Origin: a virus
Lineage: Duplodnaviria; Heunggongvirae; Uroviricota; Caudoviricetes
Strand: one strand, 5' to 3'
Length of the DNA: 64,000 bases
Virus record (IMG/VR): IMGVR_UViG_3300001687_000020
Position 1 is the first letter of the stretch, and each line of letters starts with the position of its first letter. The translations under genes and the position numbers were made by a program. The notes beneath the pieces were generated by a model. That model made no database searches, had not been told where the DNA came from, and saw nothing but the letters and a program-made list of their open reading frames with translations. This document shows, one piece after another, positions 7,285 through 49,002 of this stretch.

Positions 7285-7299
7285 GTTTTCTTTTAACCT

Positions 7300-7345
7300 T
7301 AAAAAAAAGAGGGATAATATGAAGTCTATGTTATCCCTCTTAGGT
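7300..7345 (+). terminator. hairpin terminator
   Basis: AGAGGGATAA ... TTATCCCTCT, a 10-bp stem with a T-rich 3' flank. Confidence 0.5.
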
Positions 7346-7442
7346 TTTTGAGAGAAATGTAAAATTTTCGAAAGTCCTTTCTGGACTAGTTTAAAGTTGA
7401 TATATATAGCAGTTAACTAATTAAATGAAAGGAGGCAACAAA

Positions 7443-8030
7443 ATGTTGTCTAAAAGAATCCTTTCTATGGTTTTAGTTTTGATATTAGTTTTAGGCATTA
7501 CTTCTTTTTCCGAAAGTTCTGAGGATTTCAGAATAGGGATGTCTTATGAATCAGCTCTTAGGTTGGCTAGAGATGGAGAAAAGATAGCTAACTGGAAGGT
7601 TAATATAAGTAAACTAGAACGAGATCCTATGTTTCCTGAAAATCCTGATATTATTATCAACCTTAACAATTTTTATAATACATATGGATTTAAAGTTGAT
7701 ATAGCTATTAGATGTCATAGATATGTTCCTCTTTTTCCTGCTGGTAAAATTGAGTGCATAGATATTTGGATTGATTTGGGTTTTGCATCTTTAGATGAAA
7801 AGGAAAATTTAAGAAGGCTGGAATCTTGCAATCCTTTTGTAAGAGAAATATTAGGAAGATTTGGCTCATTTGGTTTTCTTTACGGACTTTATGATAGTAA
7901 TATGATAATCATACAATCTAATAGTCCAACTATACATAATGAAATGACTCGAGAGACAGCCGAATACTATAATGTTGAATTTAGGCCAAAAAATCTTTCT
8001 ATTAGTATTAACATAATGGGTGATGATTAA
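7443..8030 (+). CDS. secreted protein, paralog family A (member 2)
   Basis: About 80 nt of 5' region (SD plus signal peptide MLSKRILSMVLVLILVLGITSFS) is near-identical to the member-3 gene. The MLSK start was chosen over upstream ATGs. Confidence 0.6.
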   Translation: MLSKRILSMVLVLILVLGITSFSESSEDFRIGMSYESALRLARDGEKIANWKVNISKLERDPMFPENPDIIINLNNFYNTYGFKVDIAIRCHRYVPLFPAGKIECIDIWIDLGFASLDEKENLRRLESCNPFVREILGRFGSFGFLYGLYDSNMIIIQSNSPTIHNEMTRETAEYYNVEFRPKNLSISINIMGDD

Positions 8031-8046
8031 GAAAGGAGGCAACAAA

Positions 8047-8466
8047 ATGTTGTCTAAAAGAATCCTTTCTATGGTTTTAGTTTTGATATTAGTTTTAGGC
8101 ATTACTTCTTTTTCTGTTTGGGCTAATAAAGATGTGGTTAAAGAGCCATTTCTTTATCCAGGAATGTCTTATAAGAAGGCTTTAGCTGAACTAAAGTTAG
8201 GAGAAAAGAATGGATTATGGATAGTTATAGAATCGGAAAAAGAATTGGAACGTCTTTGGGGAGTAAAAGTTATGGCTATCTCATATTCTTATGATGAAGA
8301 TATCGTAAAATTTATGGTGTTCTTCAAAAATCGTCTTGTTTCTTGGATGAAATATGACACATACCCAGGTGAAGATGATGAAGAAGAATTTGATCCCAAC
8401 TTATATGAAGAAGAAGAGTATTATATTAGTGAAGAATTTTATGATCTTATATATAAGGATGATTAA
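8047..8466 (+). CDS. secreted protein, paralog family A (member 3), acidic C-terminus
   Basis: Same leader as member 2. Motif PGMSYKKALAELKLGEK. DE-rich tail. Confidence 0.6.
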   Translation: MLSKRILSMVLVLILVLGITSFSVWANKDVVKEPFLYPGMSYKKALAELKLGEKNGLWIVIESEKELERLWGVKVMAISYSYDEDIVKFMVFFKNRLVSWMKYDTYPGEDDEEEFDPNLYEEEEYYISEEFYDLIYKDD

Positions 8467-8853: not shown

Positions 8854-9073
8854 TTATTATATATGAATTCTATATATATTAATTACTAGAATAATAGTTG
8901 TCAGTTTTTTATTAACTTCAAATGAGAGGAGGTGTTAAACTTACTTATTACGTAGGGAAAGTACTGATTTGCTAGATTTAAATTTTTACAATGATAGTAC
9001 TATTAAAGGTATTTAAAGAAGTTTTTAAATACTTTTAACTCATCACTAACCTTTTGGAAAAGGAGGTTTCCAA

Positions 9074-9995: not shown

Positions 9996-10026
9996 AAAAT
10001 ATGGGACCCTCCGGGGGTCTTTTTTT
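9996..10026 (+). terminator. rho-independent terminator
   Basis: GGGACCCTCCGGGGGTC followed by a T8 run, placed after the 9074..9907 gene. Confidence 0.6.
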
Positions 10027-10057
10027 TGCTTCTTTTTTTTAAGAATTAGCGAAAAAA

Positions 10058-10085
10058 TGAGGGCCCCCCGAAGGGGACCCTACAT
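10058..10085 (-). terminator. hairpin terminator (minus strand)
   Basis: Minus-strand reading GGGTCCCCTTCGGGGGGCCC followed by TCATTTTTT, downstream of the capsid gene. Confidence 0.5.
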
Positions 10086-10280: not shown

Positions 10281-11732
10281 TTAGGACTCGGTAATTGTCA
10301 AAGTAGCAATACCGTTAGATCTGACCAAAGCAGTCGCATAACGTGACAAAATGGTCAAACTCGGTTTTGCCCCTAGTGGGTAAGGATGAAGGATGGCCGG
10401 AACGTACGGTGCGTAAAAGTAGACGGCCTTAACATCCTCAACCGGTTTGTATACCAAAACCATGGTTCCCTGAGTTACCTCAGAAGAAGTCAAAATCTTC
10501 CATTTTCCACCAGAAACTGTGGCAGTTCTATAACCCACATCACCATTGACATCTGAAGTCCCTGTATAGGCAAAACCATTAAGGGCTTCAAAAATCGCTG
10601 CGTCAAGAGGATTACATAGAATTGTGTTTGCGGAACCAATGTTTGTGTCATTATAGACCTGGCCCGACAAAGCACTAAGAATAGGAAGAATATTCTCAAA
10701 CCAATATTTTTGACCCCAAGCGTAGGTCGCCGGTGGGGTTTTGTCAAAAGTGTTGGTATGAGTGGCTGCATTTAAACGAGTATTAGCAGAAATAAGAGCA
10801 GCAATAATTTCCCTATCGATATCCAAAGCAATTTGCTGACCCAAAAGGTTAACAATTTCTGCCTGGAGAGATAGGTCAAAAAGTGCCCTCATATCCTGCT
10901 CCATATTAATTGACCAGTTAGAACTGATCTGTCGATCCCTTGCATATAGCCTAATTTTGTCAACCGTTAGGTTAACAATGGGATTGACCTGATTTTCCTC
11001 AAGCGAACAGGTAACTGAATACCTTACGCTAGTAACAACTGCGGTCGTACTTGCGATACTTACCACACCAGTCAAATAATTGACATGACCGGTAACTACA
11101 TCTGCATGCCCAGCAACGGTTACCGAGGAGGCAAAATAACCTTCCACATCGGGAACGATTTGGACATCAGTGTAATTACCCGTGGAGTCAACCACTCGAG
11201 AAATCTCAAAATCTCTCTCAAGGTGTGCCTGAGAAGAGGTCAAACTAATCGCCGTCAACACATTCGTGCTCGAGGGAACTGCCATCGTGGCAGCGGTGGG
11301 AATACCCGAAACTGGTCCACGAGAAACATCCTGAGTCACGGAAGGAGCAGACGCAGTAAAAGAAGGATTAGTTGACGTAAAAGTTGCTGTAATATAAGGT
11401 TTTACACATTCAGGTTTATCCATTGGGGAGACAGTAATTGCCTCTTTAGCAACCAATTTTGGATAGTAAACCCTGATAATAGGGAGAGTAAGTGTCTCAT
11501 AAGGATTGATTTGGTACATCGAGTTTTCCAAAAGGGTAACTCTAGCATTTTCTGCCAGCTGACAGAAAACTTCCTTATCCTTAGGAGATTCAATACTCTC
11601 AGCCAAAGTCGACTTATACATATCCCAAGCAGTATCGTTAACCAATACTTCTCGGAATCGACCTGGTTTTGTCGGATCGATACCCGATTTCTTTTTCACA
11701 GTCCGATAAGCTTCCGTTAGAATATATTTCAT
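10281..11732 (-). CDS. major capsid protein (T4 gp23-like, HK97 fold)
   Basis: 483 aa. Placed last in the portal-protease-scaffold-capsid order. General gp23-like character along the sequence. SD AAAGGAGGAG. Confidence 0.8.
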   Translation of the reverse strand: MKYILTEAYRTVKKKSGIDPTKPGRFREVLVNDTAWDMYKSTLAESIESPKDKEVFCQLAENARVTLLENSMYQINPYETLTLPIIRVYYPKLVAKEAITVSPMDKPECVKPYITATFTSTNPSFTASAPSVTQDVSRGPVSGIPTAATMAVPSSTNVLTAISLTSSQAHLERDFEISRVVDSTGNYTDVQIVPDVEGYFASSVTVAGHADVVTGHVNYLTGVVSIASTTAVVTSVRYSVTCSLEENQVNPIVNLTVDKIRLYARDRQISSNWSINMEQDMRALFDLSLQAEIVNLLGQQIALDIDREIIAALISANTRLNAATHTNTFDKTPPATYAWGQKYWFENILPILSALSGQVYNDTNIGSANTILCNPLDAAIFEALNGFAYTGTSDVNGDVGYRTATVSGGKWKILTSSEVTQGTMVLVYKPVEDVKAVYFYAPYVPAILHPYPLGAKPSLTILSRYATALVRSNGIATLTITES

Positions 11733-11881: not shown

Positions 11882-12304
11882 CTATAAAACGTCAACTGAA
11901 CTAATACTTTTAGAAATTAAGGAGGAAAGTTCACTTATATGCTTTTTTAGTAAATCTTCATCTAAGTTATCTATTCCTTTTAAAAGAAGTATAATATCCT
12001 CTCTTCTACTCTTCTCTGCTAATCCGAATTTAACTATCTTATAAATTTTCTTTAATAATTCTCTAACTAATTTTTGTCTATTTATAGAAGTCATTAAACT
12101 TTTCATGTGATTACTTTCAGTAGAAACTTTTTCTTTTATTTCTTTGACTTTTTTTTCTATTTCTAAAACTTCTTTTTGCTTTTCTAATTCTTTTTTCTTA
12201 AACAACGGGAGGATATATTTCTCTACTTCTTCTCCAATCTTATATCTAATTTCATCTTCATTATAGAATAGTACATCAGGAATAGAAGTAAGTTCTATTT
12301 TCAT
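11882..12304 (-). CDS. prohead scaffolding protein (gp22-like coiled coil)
   Basis: K/E-rich heptad-repeat protein located between the protease and the capsid gene. Confidence 0.55.
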   Translation of the reverse strand: MKIELTSIPDVLFYNEDEIRYKIGEEVEKYILPLFKKKELEKQKEVLEIEKKVKEIKEKVSTESNHMKSLMTSINRQKLVRELLKKIYKIVKFGLAEKSRREDIILLLKGIDNLDEDLLKKHISELSSLISKSISSVDVL

Positions 12305-12603
12305 AATTTCTTTTCCTTCAAAGTTTTTAAGATTTCTTTTCTTATCTCTGCATTTTCATTAGCTAAAGTTGTTAATTCTATTATTATTCTTTTCTTCAAA
12401 ACTTGACTTTTCTCTAATAACTTTTCATTTTTAGAAAGTTTGTCAGTGAGTCTTTTTTTAACTGAATCTAAAGAGTCATTATCGTCAGGAGGGAAGACTA
12501 GTAATTTACTAGTCTCAAAGGATTGGGTTAGAAGGAAATCAATTATTTCTTCTCTCTCTAAATGGTCTCTTTTCCAACCATGTTCGTATACTTCAATTTT
12601 CAT
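12301..12603 (-). CDS. coiled-coil prohead/scaffold-associated protein
   Basis: K/E/L-rich. ATGA overlap with the downstream scaffold gene suggests translational coupling. Confidence 0.45.
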   Translation of the reverse strand: MKIEVYEHGWKRDHLEREEIIDFLLTQSFETSKLLVFPPDDNDSLDSVKKRLTDKLSKNEKLLEKSQVLKKRIIIELTTLANENAEIRKEILKTLKEKKL

Positions 12604-12664: not shown

Positions 12665-12712
12665 AGAGGACAGACGAGGTCTTATTTTTTGAGGGCCATT
12701 TGGTTTTTCTTT
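12665..12712. promoter_or_regulatory. intra-operon hairpin (11-bp stem, large loop)
   Basis: GACGAGGTCTT ... AAGACCTCGTC inverted repeat in the 260-bp gap between the phosphatase and scaffold genes. Confidence 0.4.
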
Positions 12713-12864
12713 TAAAGACCTCGTCTTCCTACAAGGCTAAAAATGTTGGACAGTTTTATATAATAAACTCAACTAGAAGTTGAGATTGACTAGGAAATTA
12801 GACTCTTGGCATGAGTTCCGTTGCGTGCCGACATATTATATTGTCGAAAATTAGAACTTGGAGT

Positions 12865-13284
12865 CTATTCCATATTTTTAAATGAGTTCAAAACTTTGCT
12901 ATAAACTAACATATTCGGAATAAAAAATGAGTTTTTAAAAAAATCAACATCTTCTCCGTTTATTACTTTACTTAAAGCCGCCGCCATTCCTGCTGATCTT
13001 GATATCCCAGCACAACACTGGCATATAATCAATTCTATATTAAACATATGAGTAGTTACAAAATTTCTAACTAAATCGGCCATATTAGAATCAAATTTTA
13101 TAGTATCAATCACTTCACTATCTACATCATCAAAAGATAATCGCAGAATACCCTTACATTCGTCATACTTATTTATCGGAATATCTTTTTGGTTTGGGCA
13201 AGTTATAGAAATTACTATATAAGGAATGCTAGGATGGATATTCATTACTTGTGTTTTATTCAACACTAGAAATTTCATTTTCAT
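12865..13284 (-). CDS. dual-specificity / tyrosine-type protein phosphatase (CX5R)
   Basis: ICQCCAGISRSAGMAAA matches the HCxxGxxRS/T P-loop of Cys-based phosphatases. Confidence 0.65.
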   Translation of the reverse strand: MKMKFLVLNKTQVMNIHPSIPYIVISITCPNQKDIPINKYDECKGILRLSFDDVDSEVIDTIKFDSNMADLVRNFVTTHMFNIELIICQCCAGISRSAGMAAALSKVINGEDVDFFKNSFFIPNMLVYSKVLNSFKNME

Positions 13285-13331
13285 AGTTAATTCCTCTTAA
13301 TTCGATATTCGTTTTTAGATTCTTAATATTT

Positions 13332-14033
13332 CTAAAACCAGGATTCTTGAATTCTTATCATTCTACTTTCTACTAACCTATCAAAATATTCAGCCAAAAA
13401 GCAATCCCCATTTTTAGTACATATTAAACTCCCATTACAAGTTTCAGTTATAGAATTTTTATTCAAATAAGTTGGAAGTTTTGTGGACTCAAATGTGACT
13501 TCTGCCACAGTTGCTTTTTCATGGGAGGGATTAGAGACTGCGTCATAACAAATAACTACCAATGGATCTTGAACGTCATTAAATCCTTCTTGCATTCTTC
13601 TTAATTCAGCTAATCCTCGGAGACTTAAACCAATACCTACTTGATCTTTTAAGAGACCTAGTAAATCTCTTCCTGGTTTATTAGAAAGAGTTTCCATTTC
13701 TCCCCAAACTAAATTATTTCCGCCAAATTCATAATTCCTAAGAATAAGACACGAATTAGACAATAATGGAACACTTTGGCGAATTTCATCATATGTGGGA
13801 TTTCCTGTAGGAATAGGGTGATCTAATTCTCCATAAAAAGACCTTCCATCCATTCTTCCTTTCGCTTTTAGCAAACCTGATTCAAGAACTGATCTTCGAT
13901 ATCTTCTTTTATTCCTATTGACTTCATCCACAGTTTGTAAAACCGACCTAAAAACAGCTTTATCTTTCTTTAGATAATCTATTTTAGGTTGGTTATATAC
14001 AGCACCTTCTCTTATGAAATATAGTCCTGACAT
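13332..14033 (-). CDS. prohead core protease (T4 gp21-like)
   Basis: Segment VDEVNRNKRRYRRSVLE and the GELDHP region resemble T4 gp21 (EVVNRNKRLYP...GELNHP). Its position after the portal and core proteins also fits. Confidence 0.85.
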   Translation of the reverse strand: MSGLYFIREGAVYNQPKIDYLKKDKAVFRSVLQTVDEVNRNKRRYRRSVLESGLLKAKGRMDGRSFYGELDHPIPTGNPTYDEIRQSVPLLSNSCLILRNYEFGGNNLVWGEMETLSNKPGRDLLGLLKDQVGIGLSLRGLAELRRMQEGFNDVQDPLVVICYDAVSNPSHEKATVAEVTFESTKLPTYLNKNSITETCNGSLICTKNGDCFLAEYFDRLVESRMIRIQESWF

Positions 14034-15268: not shown

Positions 15269-17167
15269 CTAAATCGCTCCCATCGCAGGACCTCCAAAAC
15301 CACCCATTCCCGCTTCGCCTTCTTCGCTTTTATTAGTAATCTTTTCTATATCAGCCGTAACTTCATCACTTTCTACTTCTTGCCAATCAATGTCGGGTAG
15401 ATATTTTTTCTTAGAGTATTCTTTAGAAATACCAATTCTTTCAAGTGATTCAATCATGTTGACAATATCTGAAATATGTCTTGCTTGTCTCTCATATTGA
15501 AGTGATTTTGGTGCTTGAAACGCTATATTTATTTCGTCATACATCGCTAAAGTTTCTTCAGGAAATGTTAACTCCAATAACTTATGAACTAATTCTTCTA
15601 CATCTCCACTTAGTATTTTTTGATAGTTAATAATCGATCTAGTAAAAGATATATTTTCTTCACTTAAAGCTGCTTTATTTGATAAATTAGTTTCGAGCCC
15701 AATGAAGGCTGGGGGAACATTCAAGGCGGCAATTATACTATCTCTAATATAAGCCAACTCGTCGACTTTTCCTCTAACGTCAACTCCGCCTGCGTTGAAT
15801 GTATCGATTTCCACAAATCTTCTTCCATCTTTCATCGGGACATAAATATCTTCAAACGTGGATATAGTAGACGGAATTGTATCTAATTGCCCATAACTTC
15901 CAATAGAAACTTTTCTTTTTCTAAACTCTTCTTTAAGTCCTTCAATTAATTTTTTGGCATCCCTCGGAAGACCAATTTCAACACCAATAATTCTTTTTTC
16001 TGTTGATCTTGAAATCCTATGGACTGTAAGAGCAGTTTCCAATGATATCAATAGTTTAGCTAAAAACTCTACTGGATAAAACACTGACTCCCCATAAGGA
16101 TAAAATTTTGTACTAGGGAGTTTAAAATGTTGCATTCTATTAGGTGGGACAAATCTTACATTTAAGATAGATCTAGATTCAACTTTAGATAAAATAGATG
16201 ATATTACCGCCTTTAAATCTTCATTATTCTTAAACTCATCATAATTCGGAAGCATATTGGCCAAGTTTTTCAAAATTTGATTACAAACATTATCAACAGT
16301 ACTACTACTTGGTCCCGCACTTTGGACTATATTGTCATATCTTGGAAATATTAAATATCCAAAGCATACACTAAATAAACTACTTTGAAGTTTAACCACC
16401 CACTCGGGATGATGGAAAAGAAGGTGAACATCAGATATGTCTTTTCCTTCTTTTTGACCATTTCCGTTAGAGGGAGTTTTATCTTCATTGATATACATAT
16501 TGAATATTTTAAATGTGATATCTTTTTCTTTTTCTCGGTCTTTATCCTTCATTTTTATATTAATATCAAAATTAGCTATTTCTCTTTGAGCGATTAGATT
16601 TCTTATACTCTGAGATTCTGCTAAATATGCTCTACTAGTTAAAGCAGTTTCACTATTTCCTACTTCTACAAAAAAGTCTCCATATAGAAGAGTACTTCGG
16701 ATTATTATATCCAAATTGTTTTCCAATTTAGTTTTCTTCATTATTTCTTTTATAGAACCAACAAATGCCTGGAGTCCTTCATCCTCACCTAAATCAGAAC
16801 TAAGCTTCACATCAAGAGATCGCTTAGTAATATCGTCAGGAGATATAATATTATCAACTATAACATTTAAAGCACGATAACAATAACTAATATTTCTTAT
16901 CATTGATTCATAACTTTTATATCTTTGTAACCGATCACCTTGTCCAAAAAAAGCGGGGTTAGCATTTGGAGAAAACCAATCAAACTTTGAGACAGCTTGT
17001 TGTTTTCCTGCTAAATTTTTAAGTAGTTCAACATAACTTAACCTACCACTATATGTTTTTAATTGAAGAATATCTTTTACCGCACTATCAAGCTGTGTGT
17101 CGATATCTAAAGTTTGAGTTCCTAAAATTTTAGATTTTAATTGATTATAGATGTCAGAAATAGGCAT
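15269..17167 (-). CDS. portal protein (gp20-like)
   Basis: 632 aa, placed at the head of the morphogenesis operon. Size and context match T4 gp20. The C-terminus is Gly/Met-rich. Confidence 0.7.
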   Translation of the reverse strand: MPISDIYNQLKSKILGTQTLDIDTQLDSAVKDILQLKTYSGRLSYVELLKNLAGKQQAVSKFDWFSPNANPAFFGQGDRLQRYKSYESMIRNISYCYRALNVIVDNIISPDDITKRSLDVKLSSDLGEDEGLQAFVGSIKEIMKKTKLENNLDIIIRSTLLYGDFFVEVGNSETALTSRAYLAESQSIRNLIAQREIANFDINIKMKDKDREKEKDITFKIFNMYINEDKTPSNGNGQKEGKDISDVHLLFHHPEWVVKLQSSLFSVCFGYLIFPRYDNIVQSAGPSSSTVDNVCNQILKNLANMLPNYDEFKNNEDLKAVISSILSKVESRSILNVRFVPPNRMQHFKLPSTKFYPYGESVFYPVEFLAKLLISLETALTVHRISRSTEKRIIGVEIGLPRDAKKLIEGLKEEFRKRKVSIGSYGQLDTIPSTISTFEDIYVPMKDGRRFVEIDTFNAGGVDVRGKVDELAYIRDSIIAALNVPPAFIGLETNLSNKAALSEENISFTRSIINYQKILSGDVEELVHKLLELTFPEETLAMYDEINIAFQAPKSLQYERQARHISDIVNMIESLERIGISKEYSKKKYLPDIDWQEVESDEVTADIEKITNKSEEGEAGMGGFGGPAMGAI

Positions 17168-19441: not shown

Positions 19442-20983
19442 TCAGAAATTAGCTTCAAAATCGTTAGGTCTAACATTTGCCATATCAGTTCTGCTTCCTG
19501 GCTCAGGTGTATATGGAGGATCATTATTATTATCATCATATCTATCATCAAAAGTAATAAGTCCCTCCCCCTCGGGATTTCCTGATATCGGAGTATTTCC
19601 TGGAGGACGATGAGAAGGCCATATTCTATATCTACTTAAGTCTGCTTCAAATGAAACACTTCTTCTTGGACCATTCCTATTTTTTCCTACATTAAAAGAA
19701 ATTCTTCCATCATCTGAGGGACCAAGTAAAGCAACAAAGTCAACATGCTCTACTTTTTTCATTGCCTCTCCAACACTAGTCAACTCAGGGGCTTCGTTAT
19801 TATAACCTGACCTATTAACTTGAGTAACTGTAATCACAGGAATATCGTAATCAATAGATAAAATTTTCATATCTAAAGCAATCTTTGCTAATTGTAATCT
19901 ATATAAATCAGTAGAGAATTTTGCATCAAATAAATCTAAATAATCAACTAATAGTGCCTTTATTTTCTTCTTTCCATAACGAGAAGAAATGTCATCTAAA
20001 AGTATTCTTACATCTTCAGTTCCGATTGAATAAGCAGGAAAATAATACATACAAATATTATTCCTACTTTTTTCTATAACATCTTTGACCGCTTCTCTGA
20101 CGTTTGTTCCATTATTTATATCATTAACTATTTGAGTTTCAGTCCTATTAAATAAACAACAATATAGTCTAGCAAATGTTTCATCAATAAGATTCTCTAA
20201 AGTTACATATACATAAACTCCTTCGATATCATCCGAAGATGAAATTCTTGATCTTTTACATACGTTTGCTAAGAAATTTATTAAAAAAGTAGATTTACCA
20301 CATCCTGAGTGCCCCGCAATTAAGTAAACTCGACATTTTCTAAATCCACCCCTTAATATATCTCCATCTAAATTTTCAAAACCAGAAGGAACACAATTCT
20401 CCGCTTTATTATTTTCTTTTATTCGGTCTAATACATATTCGTATGAATCAGTCATTAAGTCAAGAGAAGCAGAAACTTCAACTACTGCTGCTCTATTTTC
20501 TTGCATCATATTAGCATATAAACTTTTTACGGCTCCCTCATATTCACCTACTAAATCATCGCAACTTTCAAATCTTGACTCTTCAACTGAAGAAACTAAA
20601 TCTTTCAGTTTATTAAAGTCTTTAAATAAAGCAATTTCTTTCTTTCGATTTCTAATCTGTTTGGTATAGTCAGAAGTAAGAGATGAGTCAATATGTTTTC
20701 CCAATTTATCTTCTATATAATCTTTTAAACCATCAAATTTTCCTCCTGCTAAGATACTATCAATTATAGAGGGAATTGACCTATTCTCCATCTTTAAAGT
20801 GCAAACTTTATAAAGGCAATCAAATTTATTCTTTATCTGGATAGGAATATCTTGATTATAAAGTTCCAAGTGATAGTCCAATATATCTAAAATATTCCTT
20901 ACTAAGGATGGGTCTCTATGAATGATAGTGTCTTTTGCTAATAATAAAGAAAAACAAACATCTAAGAAAGATTCTGTAATCAT
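19442..20983 (-). CDS. DnaB-like (SF4/RecA-fold) replicative helicase
   Basis: Walker A GHSGCGKST. LLVDYLDLFDA matches the DnaB H4 motif (vIDYLQLm). An N-terminal domain of about 200 aa precedes the ATPase. Confidence 0.75.
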   Translation of the reverse strand: MITESFLDVCFSLLLAKDTIIHRDPSLVRNILDILDYHLELYNQDIPIQIKNKFDCLYKVCTLKMENRSIPSIIDSILAGGKFDGLKDYIEDKLGKHIDSSLTSDYTKQIRNRKKEIALFKDFNKLKDLVSSVEESRFESCDDLVGEYEGAVKSLYANMMQENRAAVVEVSASLDLMTDSYEYVLDRIKENNKAENCVPSGFENLDGDILRGGFRKCRVYLIAGHSGCGKSTFLINFLANVCKRSRISSSDDIEGVYVYVTLENLIDETFARLYCCLFNRTETQIVNDINNGTNVREAVKDVIEKSRNNICMYYFPAYSIGTEDVRILLDDISSRYGKKKIKALLVDYLDLFDAKFSTDLYRLQLAKIALDMKILSIDYDIPVITVTQVNRSGYNNEAPELTSVGEAMKKVEHVDFVALLGPSDDGRISFNVGKNRNGPRRSVSFEADLSRYRIWPSHRPPGNTPISGNPEGEGLITFDDRYDDNNNDPPYTPEPGSRTDMANVRPNDFEANF

Positions 20984-27512: not shown

Positions 27513-27614
27513 TCAAGGTCCTCCTTCCTTTATGATTTGTTCATAGGTTTTGAGCAACTTCAATTTGGAAAGAACTAGTGGTTTTATATATATTAATTAC
27601 CAGTTAAAGTATAT

Positions 27615-27650
27615 TGGATTGTTGCTTTTTTTAACAGTCAAGAAAAGCAA
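27615..27650. promoter_or_regulatory. hairpin in polB-intervening region
   Basis: TTGTTGCTTTT ... AAAAGCAACAA inverted repeat. Confidence 0.35.
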
Positions 27651-27679
27651 CAAAAAAATAATGGAAAGGAGGAATTGCT

Positions 27680-29445: not shown

Positions 29446-31773
29446 TCAATTTTTAGAAAAATTACTCATATAATTTTCTGCTTCTAAAATACAAGTTTTA
29501 GTAATCTCTTGACCTGATAAAGTAACTGATGAGGCTAAATCGGGGCAAAAGAATCTAAAATGTGAGTTTGCTAAAACTCCATAAAAAGAGTTTGCTAAAA
29601 TTTTATAAGCCCATTGCTTCATATCATATTCTGTTTCTATCGTTTTATTTTCAGCTTTAAACATTTTCTTTTTATAAATATCTCGCGTTTCCATAAGTTC
29701 TTTTAAAATATCTGAGAAAAAAGAACTCTCCTCTTCATGACTTTTATAAAAGCAACCATTTATAGTGACTACTAATTTTTCATTTTTAAATTTAGCAATT
29801 AAATCTTCCTTTTTCATAATAACTAATTCATTCTTTTCTAATGGATCTAATATCACTTCTACCTTATCAGGAAAACTATCTATATTATAAATAAAATCAT
29901 AACCATTAGTAAAATCTTTAAACTTCATAACGAAAGTGTTAAAACCTATATTATAAGTAATAATTAAACTTGGATACAGACTTTTAAAATCAAAATCCAC
30001 TATCCAATCATGTATACCTAAATTAGGTTCTTTTACATATCCTCCAGGTATACTACTATTATCACCACTAGAAACAAAATTCCTCGGAGACATACCTTTC
30101 TTTTTAAGATAGCATAAAACATAATTATCAATCTGACCAATAGTTGAAAAACTTGATCTAAAAGTTGTGCTACATAAAAGCCTTAATTCATTAAGTAATG
30201 AAATATAGTGTCTTTTTCTTTCTAATTCATCTAACAACTCAACGTCCGTTCTATTATACTCAACAAATTTATCAATATCATTTCTATATAAATCAGTTAT
30301 AGTTCCATCATACCTGACTTTAGTATGTTCTAATTCCTCTTGAGCAATAAAGTCCAAGGTATAACTTTCTTTTCTTGATTGAGAAAATGTCTTATATAAA
30401 TTACACATGTCTATACATATTTTTCCTGCTATATGTAAATAATTTCTAGAAGTATCAAACTCCAATTCTCCATATTTAGATAAAATCTTATTTGATATTC
30501 CTAACTTTGGGCATCTATTATAGATATATAACAAGTCAAATCCTAGATTCCACCCAGCAATAATATCAGGGTCAATATTAACTAAATCATTAACCAATTT
30601 GGAAACCAACTCTTTTTCTGTTTTAACAAATATTCTATCTTCAGAAATAGTTGGTTTATTTTTAACCAAACTTGATGCTATACTATAACTTATAGTCTTT
30701 CCATGGTATCTATATGATATTGAATTTATAGGTCTTTTTGCCTCTTCTGGTCTTGGAAACTCCATAGTTTCACCCAAGTCAACTTCAATATCAACAAAGA
30801 ATATATTCAAATTTTTAGTTGGAGCTTCTTCTTTATTTAATAAATAATAATCGACGGCATACTTATTATCTATTCTTATATCGCCCTCATAATGGTTATT
30901 AGCATTTAAAGAATACTTATTTTTATATTCTAATCTCATAGTTTTAAGATTATCATAATTTTCAACTAGTTTAGATGATCTGTTTGAAGATTCATAGCAA
31001 TAGTACTGAGCATTTTCTTCGTGGTATACTTTTTTATTATCTTTATCTCTAAAAATAAATATTATTTTAGAATTATTCTTTATCGATTGAATATCAACTA
31101 ATCTATACTCGTTGGTATAAAATTTATCAGGAATAGTTATAAAAACTGGGGCCTTTTCTTTTGATTCTTTAATTCCCGAAGTTATTTCCATTTTCTTCTC
31201 AGCATTTCCTGTTACATATTTATATGCTTCAAATAAGTCTTTAGTAAAATTCTCTTTCATCTCAGGATTAGGTCTTCTGGCTAAATATGATGGATGAATA
31301 GTTACTAAAATCTTATAGTTTTCCCATTCAAAATAGTTTCCTCTGATCTTAGTTATACCACCACTTATACCAAAAGCACTACATGCACTAGCCCCCATTA
31401 AAACAATAAGTTTTGGATTACATTTTCGTATGATATCGAAACAATTTAATTTACATCTTTCTATAACTTCTTTACTTGGATTTCCTGTAGTTCCATCAGG
31501 ATTAATAGTTTGACAAAGAACCACATTAGTCAATAAATATTTAACTTTATTCTTGAAAAAATAAAAGTTAAAACCTGATTTCCTAAATACCTGTCCAGAT
31601 TTTCCTATTAGAGGGACTTCCTTATCTACTTCATCTTTACCAGGATTTTCAGCAATAAAGATCACTTCTACATCATCTAAATATTTACAATTAGTTTCTA
31701 GTATACAACTTGGGCAACTTTCTAATGGGCACCCTTCGCAATCAGTTAATGTCGATGAAATTATTTTAAACAT
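29446..31773 (-). CDS. family-B DNA polymerase, N-terminal piece (UDG4-like domain + 3'-5' exo + motifs A/B)
   Basis: N-terminal FIAENPGKDEVDKEVPLIGKSGQVF resembles family-4 UDG (GEAPG...PFvG.aG). FFVDIEVD is Exo I. DFDFKSLYPSLII is motif A. KILANSFYGVL is motif B. The ORF ends before motif C. Confidence 0.85.
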   Translation of the reverse strand: MFKIISSTLTDCEGCPLESCPSCILETNCKYLDDVEVIFIAENPGKDEVDKEVPLIGKSGQVFRKSGFNFYFFKNKVKYLLTNVVLCQTINPDGTTGNPSKEVIERCKLNCFDIIRKCNPKLIVLMGASACSAFGISGGITKIRGNYFEWENYKILVTIHPSYLARRPNPEMKENFTKDLFEAYKYVTGNAEKKMEITSGIKESKEKAPVFITIPDKFYTNEYRLVDIQSIKNNSKIIFIFRDKDNKKVYHEENAQYYCYESSNRSSKLVENYDNLKTMRLEYKNKYSLNANNHYEGDIRIDNKYAVDYYLLNKEEAPTKNLNIFFVDIEVDLGETMEFPRPEEAKRPINSISYRYHGKTISYSIASSLVKNKPTISEDRIFVKTEKELVSKLVNDLVNIDPDIIAGWNLGFDLLYIYNRCPKLGISNKILSKYGELEFDTSRNYLHIAGKICIDMCNLYKTFSQSRKESYTLDFIAQEELEHTKVRYDGTITDLYRNDIDKFVEYNRTDVELLDELERKRHYISLLNELRLLCSTTFRSSFSTIGQIDNYVLCYLKKKGMSPRNFVSSGDNSSIPGGYVKEPNLGIHDWIVDFDFKSLYPSLIITYNIGFNTFVMKFKDFTNGYDFIYNIDSFPDKVEVILDPLEKNELVIMKKEDLIAKFKNEKLVVTINGCFYKSHEEESSFFSDILKELMETRDIYKKKMFKAENKTIETEYDMKQWAYKILANSFYGVLANSHFRFFCPDLASSVTLSGQEITKTCILEAENYMSNFSKN

Positions 31774-31977
31774 ATTCTCTCCTATTTTTATAATTTTAAA
31801 TTTATATTATGTTCTAACTCTTTAAGAAACATCTATTTGGATAAAACCAATTAGAATATATATATTAATTACTGGTATTTAAGAAAGTGGTTGTTGCTTA
31901 GAAAATTATATTTTTTAAATGTATCTTTTTTCTCTCTCAATAGAAGGATACATTTACATTGTAGGAGGTGTATTGTC

Positions 31978-34223: not shown

Positions 34224-35060
34224 ATGATGGGGATACACGCTGATTCCTTTTTTGCTAAATCTAAAAATCATATTGCATGCGGGGATTATGCTATTAGTAT
34301 AAATAATCCATTTCCAATGGCTATAGTCTGCGATGGATGTTCGTCATCTAGTTATTCAGACATAGGATCTAGAATTTTAGCACATTCAGCTAAGAAATGT
34401 ATGTTAAGTCATTATGAATCTGGCGATCTAATGTTTAATATCAGCCACGATACGTTAGGTAAATCAATTATAATCAACTCTTGTAATTCATGTTACTTTT
34501 TAGGACTTACTTGTCAAGCTTTGGACTCAACTCTTCTTCTCGCTTACCACACATATAATGAGATAAGAGTTTTAACTTTTGGGGATGGAATAGTAGTTCT
34601 CAGAAATAAAAATGGGACTTTACACTTTTTTGAAATAAGTTATAAAAACAATATGCCTTACTATTTATCTTATGATTATGATAAAACTAGAAGGCAAGAA
34701 TACTTTAGACAGAGTGAAGGAGGGAAAAATGAGAAAATATGTAAAGCCGTAACTTGTATAAATGGAGATTTCTATAGTGCTTCCCATCCTGTTCGTGAAG
34801 GATTAACATTCAGATTTCCTGTTGAAGAGTTTCTATTCGTAGGCGTTTGTTCTGATGGTATGAGTCAATTTAAGAATCTTTTAAATAATGAATTCTTAGA
34901 AACTTCAGATATATTATTTCCTTTTACTGATTTTAAGAATGTTCGTGGATCTTTTATCCAACGAAGAGTAAAGAGAGAACTAAGTGATCTTGCTCAAAAA
35001 AAGATAGTTAATATTGACGATATAGCTATTTCAGGAATTTGGATTCCAGAGGAGTACTGA
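34224..35060 (+). CDS. PP2C-family Ser/Thr phosphatase-like protein
   Basis: AIVCDGCSSSS...GSRI, FVGVCSDGMSQF and the C-terminal NIDDIAISGIWI resemble PP2C motifs (vaDGmGG, lcSDGl, DDiTvv). Confidence 0.6.
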   Translation: MMGIHADSFFAKSKNHIACGDYAISINNPFPMAIVCDGCSSSSYSDIGSRILAHSAKKCMLSHYESGDLMFNISHDTLGKSIIINSCNSCYFLGLTCQALDSTLLLAYHTYNEIRVLTFGDGIVVLRNKNGTLHFFEISYKNNMPYYLSYDYDKTRRQEYFRQSEGGKNEKICKAVTCINGDFYSASHPVREGLTFRFPVEEFLFVGVCSDGMSQFKNLLNNEFLETSDILFPFTDFKNVRGSFIQRRVKRELSDLAQKKIVNIDDIAISGIWIPEEY

Positions 35061-36772
35061 TGAAAATATTTATACCTGGACAAGGATCAATTCAACTAAG
35101 CGACTCAGATTTTATATATAAAGGAGGAGAAGCAAAAGTTTATGGAAAAGGGGACCTAGCATATAAAATTTATTGGAAGAAAGATGAAGTAATATCTCTT
35201 TCTAAAATAAAAGAATTACAAGTTTTAGATCGAGATAACATAATTAAGCCATTATCAATAATTTTAGATCATAAGAATATTCCTATTGGGTTCTCGATGC
35301 TATTAATAGAAGATAATTTCCCGTTCCCTGTGATTTTCTCAAATGCTTTTAGAAGAGAGAATAATATTGCTCCAGAAAAGATTTTGGAGTTAGTTGAAAA
35401 TATTATGGGAAGTACTGATTTTATTCATAGTAAAGATTGTTTGGTAATTGATGGAAATGAAACAAATTATCTTTTAAGTAGGGATTTAAAGTTAGTTTAT
35501 TTCATTGATGTTAATAATTATCAAACTAAATCTTTTCCTGGTGTTTATTGTGATCCTTCTATAAGAGATTGGAATACTAAAGGATTTAATAAACTCACAG
35601 ATTGGTACTCATTTGCTATTATCGCATGTAAAATATTTGTAGGTGTTCATCCATTTAGGGGAAATCACCCAGACTTCCCAAAAACCGATATAGTTGCTAG
35701 AATGAAAGCAAATGTTTCTATTTTCAATAAGAAATCAACCATTTCTAATAAGGCCAGAGATTTTAGTAATATTCCCAGTGAGTATTTTAATTGGTTTATT
35801 AAACTTTTTGAAGATGGAAAAAGGTTGCCTCCACCTAAAGTTGCTGGACTTCTCAACGTATCCCCCATAAAAACAAAGATAGTGAGAGATTCTAAATGTT
35901 TTGATATCTCGCTATTTCGAAAGTTTCAGGACGACATCATGAAAGTTAGATATGAGAATGGAGAGTTAATTACAAAAACTAAGAAGAGTATGTATATTGG
36001 GAAAATTCCATATCCTCTTTCTGATATTAGTAAAGAACTAATTATATCCCCAAGAAGTTTAACCCCAGTTTTAGTAGGTATCGTTAACCAATTAATTTCT
36101 ATTACTTTACTTAGACCGGCAGATTTAAAAAAGTTAAATTCATGTATTCACTTAATGGCCAGTGATTTCTTTGTTTCTAAAAATTCTATATTCTTGAAAC
36201 ATCAAGGTAAGTTAGTAGAAATATCTATCGATGAACTTGCTGGTGTTATTATTCCTTGTGTAAAATCTAGTTGGAATATAATGTCCATGTCGAGTTATAT
36301 GTTTGATTCTATTGTAGTTCAAGATGTTTTAGGTGATATTTATTTGACCATTCCTATAGTTAATATAGGAAAACGATCATCTTATACTCAGATACGAATC
36401 CCCGAATTAGATAGTTATCGAATAGTAGCAGCAAAGTATGATAACTATGTTTGTATGCTAACAGGAAATAGAGGAAGTGTTTATAGCAAAATACTTATTC
36501 TATTTGATAAAGATTTCACTGATTACCAATGTATTATTAAGAATAGTGGAGATTATAGTAATATTAACTTTACGAGTTTGGATTGCGGAATATGTGCATC
36601 TATCAATGATGATGGTTCCATGGAAATATTTGAGAATAAACCAGGAACTAATTTTAAAAAGATAGAAGATCCAGACATTAAACCAAGCATGACTTTATGT
36701 AAATATGGAAGTAAAGTACTATTTTATGAAACAGATACTTTATTTTCCATATCGTCTAAGAAAGGGATCTAA
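35060..36772 (+). CDS. protein kinase-like protein with long C-terminal extension
   Basis: YKGGEAKVYGKGDLAYKIYWKK is a glycine loop plus Lys. IHSKDCLVIDGNETNYLL is the catalytic-loop HxD...N. FIDVNN is DFG-like. TDWYSFAIIACKIFVGVHPF matches DxWSxG. ATG overlaps the PP2C stop (TGATG). Confidence 0.6.
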   Translation: MKIFIPGQGSIQLSDSDFIYKGGEAKVYGKGDLAYKIYWKKDEVISLSKIKELQVLDRDNIIKPLSIILDHKNIPIGFSMLLIEDNFPFPVIFSNAFRRENNIAPEKILELVENIMGSTDFIHSKDCLVIDGNETNYLLSRDLKLVYFIDVNNYQTKSFPGVYCDPSIRDWNTKGFNKLTDWYSFAIIACKIFVGVHPFRGNHPDFPKTDIVARMKANVSIFNKKSTISNKARDFSNIPSEYFNWFIKLFEDGKRLPPPKVAGLLNVSPIKTKIVRDSKCFDISLFRKFQDDIMKVRYENGELITKTKKSMYIGKIPYPLSDISKELIISPRSLTPVLVGIVNQLISITLLRPADLKKLNSCIHLMASDFFVSKNSIFLKHQGKLVEISIDELAGVIIPCVKSSWNIMSMSSYMFDSIVVQDVLGDIYLTIPIVNIGKRSSYTQIRIPELDSYRIVAAKYDNYVCMLTGNRGSVYSKILILFDKDFTDYQCIIKNSGDYSNINFTSLDCGICASINDDGSMEIFENKPGTNFKKIEDPDIKPSMTLCKYGSKVLFYETDTLFSISSKKGI

Positions 36773-48938: not shown

Positions 48939-49002
48939 TCTTTTTATCCTCTATATATATAAATATTAAACGAGTCCGAAGGACTTTCGAGATTTTTAGT
49001 TT

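Follow-up and report, generated by a model that had tools for sequence, protein, structure and literature searches.

Why should a gene for a small cysteine-based phosphatase lie among the head genes of a T4-like phage? The locus that raises this question lies in a 64,000-nt stretch of DNA (referred to below as the window) from IMG/VR virus record IMGVR_UViG_3300001687_000020, which belongs to an uncultured T4-like phage. A first-pass annotation, made from the sequence alone, had interpreted an open reading frame (ORF) at positions 12865-13284, between a prohead protease gene and two scaffold-like genes, as a Cys-based protein phosphatase embedded in the head-morphogenesis operon, probably co-expressed late and possibly packaged. 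Here we consider (i) whether the protein is a genuine cysteine phosphatase, (ii) whether its gene is a component of the head module, (iii) what class of substrate it may act on, and (iv) whether it could enter the virion. On balance we favour the explanation that the gene encodes an accessory phosphatase with a dual-specificity phosphatase (DSP) fold, a reading that leaves its substrate open.

Cysteine phosphatases are widespread in phages, and the family in question, which comprises approximately 4,000 representatives at 50% identity, is already annotated in phage genomes; only its position in a head block is unusual. The finding is thus a well-supported annotation in an unusual position and introduces no new mechanism. 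What the locus adds is a clear case of a cysteine phosphatase gene captured into the late head block of a T4-like phage, with a homologue in phage 201phi2-1 that is annotated as a virion component.

Active site and fold of the phosphatase

The ORF exists as first called, on the minus strand, and encodes 139 aa. The peptide CQCCAGISRS occupies residues 88-97, with the CX5R motif running from C90 to R96 and followed by S97. An identical protein was called on 11 metagenome contigs from several samples, and a profile search (E<=1e-10) returned 3,984 cluster representatives at 50% identity, mostly stand-alone proteins of 135-190 aa. A further 24 homologues (29-46% identity) could be aligned over their full length with the phosphatase. 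In the resulting alignment of 25 sequences, C90, G93, R96, S97, A101-103 and P123 are invariant, and D53, S26, F51, N124 and Y128 are nearly so. Because the identical protein recurs on 11 contigs, the profile search yielded so many representatives, and the catalytic residues are invariant, the CX5R motif is judged not to be a chance match. The pattern C-x2-G-x2-R-[ST] is retained in 170 of the 171 family members sampled, and a hydrophobic-x-hydrophobic-x-Asp element (h-x-h-x-D) precedes the P-loop in 167 of 170. The Asp of this element, the candidate general acid D53, lies 37 residues ahead of C90 and, in the structural model, 2 residues past strand 43-50.

The sole departure from the superfamily catalytic pattern is CQC in place of (V/I)HC. 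Although His before the nucleophilic Cys (HCX5R) is common in the superfamily, it is not obligatory, and within the family this position is Gln in ~54%, His in ~34% and Asn in ~10% of members, the phosphatase having Q89. The CQC motif, with its extra Cys two residues before the nucleophile, is found in 87 of 170 members sampled; the commonest P-loop of the family is C(E/D)AGISRS.

Taken singly, the sequence gives weak matches: the Pfam DSPc profile (PF00782) scores 13 bits (E 0.092) against a gathering threshold of 33.5 bits, the best PDB sequence match is the SBFV3 DSP 7ncy (E 0.22), and no NCBIfam match was found. It is the family context that makes the superfamily assignment solid. DSPc is matched at E<=0.1 by 23 of the 25 aligned sequences (best 7.9e-06), and the family profile matches DUSP16 (3.6e-4) and PTPMT1 and DUSP10 (~3e-3) across the P-loop, which in the phosphatase aligns with the HCxAGxSRS of DUSP16, PTPMT1 and the SBFV3 DSP. 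Alignment to VHR or VH1 with hhalign covered the P-loop only and did not reach the D-loop.

An AlphaFold model built from the family alignment (pLDDT 95.5, pTM 0.90) has the order strand 43-50, D53 loop, helix 66-82, strand 85-89, P-loop, helix 96-109. The P-loop connects a central beta-strand to an alpha-helix, and the compact alpha/beta domain can be superposed on DSPs of known structure. Foldseek searches of the PDB with this model retrieved DUSP8, DUSP16 and DUSP10 (E ~2e-4, TM ~0.6). Neither low-molecular-weight protein tyrosine phosphatases (LMW-PTP) nor ArsC appeared among the fold and sequence matches listed, and the nucleophile lies at residue 90 of 139, not at the extreme N-terminus as in that class, which also differs in topology. 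Sequence likeness to the atypical eukaryotic DUSPs (DUSP28, DUSP15, DUSP10/16, Slingshot) is confined to ~35 residues at the P-loop, and the phosphatase differs from them in lacking both the His at -1 and a mitogen-activated protein kinase (MAPK)-binding domain and in being smaller.

The protein is accordingly assigned to the Cys-based protein tyrosine phosphatase (PTP)/DSP superfamily, with all catalytic residues intact by alignment, in agreement with the first-pass identification of a CX5R phosphatase, and we are confident, short of certainty, that it is an active cysteine phosphatase. By analogy with the superfamily, catalysis would be metal-independent: the P-loop amides and R96 would hold a phosphomonoester for attack by the C90 thiolate, the leaving group would be protonated by D53 on the preceding loop, and S97 would help to hydrolyse the thiophosphoryl-enzyme intermediate.

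The gene has a GC content of 0.29 and a codon log-likelihood of -3.76, compared with a phage mean of -3.74 +/- 0.11. Recent horizontal acquisition was considered and ruled out on this phage-typical composition, and for the same reason the gene appears to be a long-standing resident whose insertion was either old or from a similar genome. Population variants across contigs amount to a single synonymous single-nucleotide polymorphism (SNP) in the gene, too few to assess purifying selection. Against JGI contig Ga0209536_100000450, the window shows 2 SNPs in 2.15 kb (12958 and 13441; loci L001 and L003), of which one, in the phosphatase gene, is synonymous. This phage is present in at least 4 samples from JGI, ENA and Logan.

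Membership of family PHROG 5614

Residues 2-133 match the PHROG 5614 profile at 1.3e-15, the same profile scoring 8e-51 against gp62 of phage 201phi2-1 and 4e-36 against gp48 of Phabio. Alignment with hhalign over 117-122 columns relates the phosphatase family to gp62 (96.3% probability) and Phabio gp48 (98.4%), with which it has the motifs VISI, LR..DDV, C-x-AG-[IV]-SRS and N..VY in common. The best viral structure matches in BFVD were a 'putative dual-specificity phosphatase' of Psa21, Phabio gp48 and 201phi2-1 B3FK37 (TM 0.78-0.79, E ~1e-8), all much closer in structure than any PDB DUSP; B3FK37 is gp62, annotated as 'virion structural protein; similar to phiKZ gp40 and dual specificity phosphatases'. 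These matches place the protein in a phage and bacterial family, PHROG 5614, together with phiKZ gp40 and 201phi2-1 gp62.

Phabio gp48 has homologues in 115 phage records; Pseudomonas phages account for 114, among them D3-like temperate phages and PA5oct, and several of the records carry a DSP annotation. The family also has cellular members, in Armatimonadota, Acidobacteriota, Planctomycetota, Spirochaetota and some Firmicutes; their gene context is not conserved. The phage members (phiKZ gp40, 201phi2-1 gp62, Phabio gp48 and D3 Orf59-like proteins) are, like the present one, small stand-alone phage-borne enzymes by annotation. The phosphatase differs from gp62 and gp48 in sharing only 24-25% identity with them, in having Gln for His before the nucleophile within CQC, and in lacking their 20-50-aa N-terminal extension; moreover, the chimallivirus genes of PHROG 5614 lie in an early region beside PhuZ, whereas the gene described here lies in a head module.

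One subset of the family (P0007, P0009, P0010, P0012, P0014, P0015 and P0017) extends N-terminally by 20-50 aa and carries a conserved R-(T/I/V)-(Y/F)-x-G-(S/A) motif just ahead of the domain. A distant member, CST090, is encoded in Clostridium phage c-st (L090, 80980-81495), ~1.4 kb downstream of the botulinum neurotoxin C1 gene.

The phosphatase gene as a probable accessory insertion

Related head modules were found via the protease and comprised 31 loci (contigs L145 and L146 plus 29 IMG/VR loci), with protease identities of 35-58%; capsid (59-76% identity) and portal (42-57%) genes were each detected in 29 of the 31. Gene order in these relatives is portal, a homologue of the 158-aa ORF found in the window, protease, (an ORF of ~100 aa), a homologue of the 140-aa ORF, and capsid. 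Homologues of the 140-aa ORF (24-45% identity) were found in 20 of the 31 loci, always directly upstream of the capsid gene, and in L145 a homologue of the 100-aa ORF (36% identity) starts 3 nt past the protease. No phosphatase homologue was detected between protease and capsid in any of the 31 modules, either by tblastn or by hidden Markov model search of inserted ORFs. The protease-to-capsid distance is 807-892 nt in minimal relatives and 1,600 nt in the window.

Across all relatives this distance ranges from 807 to 4,759 nt, and the slot directly after the protease holds varied cargo: HNH-like endonucleases (L163:5670-6599, L165:5645-6565 and L171:7019-8332, the last on the minus strand), a Thg1-like gene (L151:6936-7673), larger inserts (L162:5638-6708; L168:5653-6819 and 7897-8421) that likewise carry HNH-like endonucleases, with a cytidylyltransferase-like gene in L168, and various basic or membrane proteins. 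The protease-capsid interval is an insertion hot spot in this clade. Since none of the 31 modules holds the phosphatase and the interval in the window is longer than in minimal relatives, we regard it as very probable that the gene and the 261-nt spacer behind it form a lineage-specific accessory insertion of ~0.73 kb, which would have entered this recurrent slot just downstream of the prohead protease gene, and that the phosphatase is not a morphogenetic component. The earlier reading of the gene as part of the head-morphogenesis operon is contradicted by its absence from 31 of 31 related modules and by the unrelated cargo in the same slot.

Elsewhere, the family shows no attachment to head genes. 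Two related contigs (312 kb and 139 kb) hold a family member 70-110 kb from their own head module. Among 134 other family-encoding loci (80 IMG/VR, 54 cellular), examined together with phages Phosso and c-st, none had, within 4-6 kb of the family gene, a protease, portal or capsid gene of T4 type, and no head or packaging PHROG was found among the 25 most frequent neighbour families (immediate neighbours; ORFs >=300 aa).

The arrangement resembles that of lambdoid 'morons' and T4-type accessory insertions, which are likewise single genes among morphogenesis genes, absent from relatives and followed by a terminator-like hairpin. It differs from them in that the 47 nt ahead of the gene hold only a ribosome-binding site, with no convincing promoter, and in that codon usage is fully phage-adapted.

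Gene neighbourhood and transcription

Table 1. Features of the window that bear on the phosphatase locus, with coordinates, strand and the evidence for each.
Feature	Coordinates	Strand	Evidence and remarks
DSP-fold cysteine phosphatase gene, PHROG 5614	12865..13284	-	139 aa, ATG start
Shine-Dalgarno-like AAGAGGA	13292..13298	-	8 nt 5' of phosphatase ATG; read from sequence
P-loop codons C88-Q-C90-C-A-G93-I-S-R96-S97	12994..13023	-	Nucleophile C90, phosphate-binding R96, S97 for thiophosphate breakdown
Codon of D53, candidate general acid	13126..13128	-	Near-invariance and model topology
S77 prohead serine protease, T4 gp21-like	13332..14033	-	Pfam PF03420 1.1e-07; PHROG 207 1e-20
gp20-type portal	15269..17167	-	Pfam PF07230 1.8e-26
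Short terminator-like hairpin	12765..12787	-	~80 nt past phosphatase stop; terminator scan, inverted repeat; free energy (dG) -6.9 kcal/mol, z -2.4
AT-rich box TTTATTATATAAAAC	12753..12767	-	Directly past short hairpin; candidate promoter element for the 100-aa and 140-aa genes
Large-loop hairpin	12668..12730	-	12 perfect bp plus 4 more, 31-nt loop; dG -24.5 kcal/mol, z -5.3
100-aa charged protein, scaffold/core candidate	12301..12603	-	Position, composition
140-aa charged protein, scaffold candidate	11882..12304	-	Position, composition
gp23-type major capsid protein	10281..11732	-	Pfam PF07068 9.6e-32
PP2C-family Ser/Thr phosphatase (PP2C_2)	34224..35060	+	PF13672 1.4e-12; 22-nt overlap with kinase gene
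Probable protein kinase	35039..36772	+	PF00069 1.5e-06, 28.3 bits, under gathering score of 31.7

The features referred to in this study are summarized in Table 1. The setting is as the first-pass annotation described it, between protease and scaffold-like genes on one strand with short upstream gaps: a minus-strand run from 18151 to 12865 is tightly packed (gaps of 0-47 nt), and the phosphatase is its last gene, 47 nt from its upstream neighbour, the prohead protease. The portal-to-phosphatase part of this run also holds two ORFs (241 and 158 aa) without a family match. Behind the phosphatase come the 261-nt gap (given earlier as 260 bp), the 100-aa and 140-aa ORFs, a 149-nt gap and the capsid gene. 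The two ORFs consist of 41% and 39% K/R/D/E, respectively, and gave no profile, PDB or phage-database match and no homology to known scaffolds; on position and composition they are scaffold candidates.

Given that the phosphatase closes the packed run and is followed by hairpins, the portal-protease-phosphatase run would most likely be transcribed late with the head genes. Late co-transcription of the phosphatase, as proposed at first, is plausible in a same-strand head-gene block with short upstream gaps, and we consider it somewhat probable from the gene arrangement. The scaffold-like genes and the capsid gene would then be driven separately from their own start sites, and the large-loop hairpin would lie in the 5' leader of the 100-aa gene. 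The capsid gene, too, is preceded by a hairpin with an AT-rich box behind it that ends in AAAAC (11875-11861), and TATATA-type boxes similar to TTTATTATATAAAAC recur elsewhere between genes of the window.

The large-loop hairpin had been placed at 12665-12712 in the first-pass annotation; the structure is real, but an end at 12712 cuts off the 3' arm of a stem that spans 12668-12730, with perfect 12-nt arms at 12672-12683 and 12715-12726. Long-stem, large-loop hairpins are common in the intergenic regions of this phage, and this one is thus not peculiar to the phosphatase locus. That the spacer is a gene remnant or repeat was considered and rejected: blastn against phages gave no match to it, and the hairpin arm occurs nowhere else in the window. 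Scans for Rfam families and tRNAs, run on the spacer and on the whole window, found nothing.

Boxes of the TTAATATATATA / TATATATAG type recur in intergenic regions (27513-27679, 31774-31890, 2269-2591, 8854-9073, 48939-49002 and 7285-7424), at both divergent gene boundaries and often just past a GC-containing hairpin. These boxes are candidates for promoter elements of the phage and may be paired with terminators.

Substrate class

The first-pass annotation spoke of a protein phosphatase. A Cys-based phosphatase of DSP fold is borne out by the evidence above; protein specificity was an assumption, and the neighbours of the family elsewhere are RNA-repair, NAD and replication genes. A phosphoprotein substrate (host or phage pTyr, pSer or pThr) is the most likely class, which we hold at even confidence or slightly below. 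A protein or other phosphomonoester is preferred to an RNA tri- or diphosphate because of the conserved candidate general-acid Asp, the DUSP-like P-loop and the closer structural similarity to atypical protein DUSPs. The RNA 5'-tri/diphosphatase subgroup (BVP, PIR1/DUSP11, Mce1), in which the general-acid Asp is typically absent, did not provide the closest structure or sequence match.

The alternative that survives best, possible though unlikely, is that the enzyme acts on phosphomonoesters of nucleic acids or nucleotides, such as an RNA 3'- or 2'-phosphate in tRNA repair or phosphorylated ADP-ribose/NAD metabolites, in which case it would belong, with the same modest likelihood, to a phage counter-defence toolkit. 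Substrates of any other kind take the remaining share of the probability. While no partner gene is conserved for the family across ~108 non-redundant loci, recurrent viral neighbours, each in a few percent of loci, include (i) RNA ligase (PHA02142 plus RNA_ligase), adjacent in 5 groups, and a Thg1-like gene, adjacent in 3, (ii) CCA-adding enzyme, Macro, SLOG/YAcAr and metallophosphoesterases, and (iii) NAD-dependent DNA ligase, nicotinamide phosphoribosyltransferase, replication proteins and HNH endonucleases. These neighbours, and equally the want of a conserved partner, speak for an RNA or nucleotide substrate, as do the family gene of phage Phosso, which lies among aminoacyl-tRNA synthetase and peptidyl-tRNA hydrolase genes, and the Thg1-like gene in the same head-module slot of L151. 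The alternative also fits the proposal that phage domains of the rhodanese-phosphatase superfamily process phosphates linked to ribose (PMC9503650). On the other side, the scarcity of each RNA-related association means that it may reflect clustering of accessory genes in large phages, and no RNA-repair gene adjoins the phosphatase in the window. The conserved Asp counts against activity of the RNA tri/diphosphatase type, but would suit a 3'-/2'-phosphomonoesterase. A search with PADLOC for membership in defence or anti-defence systems gave no match.

Several observations tell against the explanation that we favour, namely an accessory, probably late-transcribed phosphatase of DSP fold acting most likely on phosphoproteins. 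The single sequence scores too low to pass Pfam's gathering threshold for DSPc; Gln stands before the nucleophile where His is canonical; and the placement of D53 relative to C90 follows from topology and conservation. The usual neighbours of the family are enzymes of RNA and nucleotide metabolism, not kinases, which weakens the protein-substrate part. The T4 late promoter TATAAATA is not enriched in the window (21 occurrences against 15.6 expected), with none informative near the phosphatase. Finally, no biochemical or biological study of any PHROG 5614 member was found in the literature on phage DSPs, phiKZ gp40 and gp62.

Possible packaging into the virion

Could the phosphatase nevertheless be packaged in the capsid and ejected with the DNA to act early on host phosphoproteins, in the manner of vaccinia VH1 or T4 Alt? 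We consider this rather unlikely. The gene does lie in a late head block directly after the prohead protease, and its homologue 201phi2-1 gp62 (hhalign probability 96%) is annotated in GenBank as a virion structural protein. In relatives, moreover, basic proteins that begin with a YLxxLNE-like motif, a possible capsid-targeting or cleavage signal, are often encoded in this slot, which suggests that genes for internal proteins are placed there. Against this, the phosphatase has neither that motif nor any (L/I/V/A/G/S)-x-E site; in the model its fold begins at residue 3-4, leaving no propeptide or targeting extension; and it lacks the N-terminal extensions of 20-50 aa of 201phi2-1 gp62 and Phabio gp48. 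The signal of T4-type internal head proteins, a targeting peptide ending in L/I-x-E, was likewise not found in its sequence. Gene position by itself is not predictive, as the internal-protein genes of T4 lie outside the head operon, and none of the 31 relatives holds a phosphatase in this slot. The packaging idea of the first-pass annotation is, on these grounds, speculative. Virus-encoded DSPs such as vaccinia VH1 (H1L) and baculovirus PTP and PTP-2 resemble the phosphatase at the superfamily level only.

More doubtful still is a variant in which the head position is functional, the phosphatase being produced late, entering the capsid without the help of a cleavable targeting peptide, and leaving it with the DNA to dephosphorylate host targets as infection begins. 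Such targets, if the enzyme were delivered with the virion, might include kinase-based abortive-infection or signalling proteins. Were the variant true, PHROG 5614 (including 201phi2-1 gp62 and phiKZ gp40) would represent virion-delivered phosphatase effectors, a bacterial-virus counterpart of vaccinia VH1. Delivery with the virion, or action in RNA-repair/NAD counter-defence, would in either case make these enzymes phage effectors of a new class.

In relatives, ORFs that immediately follow the protease encode basic, Lys-rich or membrane-like proteins with an x-Y-L-x-x-L-N-E-like N-terminus, e.g. MSKLIDIYLESLNEG and MNLANYLIFLNEQYG. They were located at L159:5652-6065, L160:5669-6109, L164:5638-6048, L156:5632-5970, L162:6705-7235, L166:6282-6854 and L168:6816-7376. 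The motif may serve to target internal head proteins to the capsid or mark where the prohead protease cleaves them; a search of ORF N-termini in the window did not find it.

Phospho-signalling enzymes elsewhere in the window

A PP2C and kinase pair had also been reported in the first-pass annotation, and both genes were found (34224-36772), the kinase match falling under the Pfam gathering score. It is improbable that they form a three-enzyme phospho-signalling module with the Cys phosphatase, for instance as a late reset of kinase phosphorylation. The PP2C_2 and probable kinase genes do overlap as a pair, and a DSP would add Tyr or dual specificity, which PP2C does not have; yet the pair lies 21 kb from the Cys phosphatase, on the opposite strand and in another module, and no kinase was found among the recurrent neighbours of the phosphatase family.

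That the protein is instead catalytically dead, or a purely structural or scaffolding component of the prohead, is hardly credible, given that Cys, Arg, Ser/Thr and Asp are all present and conserved in the family (STYX, by comparison, lacks the catalytic Cys), that the gene is missing from all 31 related head modules, and that the product is a compact globular phosphatase domain, as opposed to its coiled-coil, highly charged neighbours.

Other features of the window

The capsid gene is richer in GC (43%; 0.37 at third codon positions, GC3) than the phage on average (32%; GC3 0.23), and of the eleven genes listed for 10-18 kb its codon score is the most atypical; this may be an expression-linked codon bias. 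Between this gene and the plus-strand block convergent with it, two strong GC-rich terminator hairpins, one per strand, lie at 10003-10081. Approximately 1.1 kb (38184-39279) upstream of a 373-aa gene at 39280 is without an ORF of at least 62 aa. A 775-aa family-B DNA polymerase with a uracil-DNA-glycosylase-like domain (Pfam UDG, DNA_pol_B and divDNApol) is encoded at 29446-31773, near a divergent DnaB (19442-20983), ThyX and a nucleoside 2-deoxyribosyltransferase-like gene.

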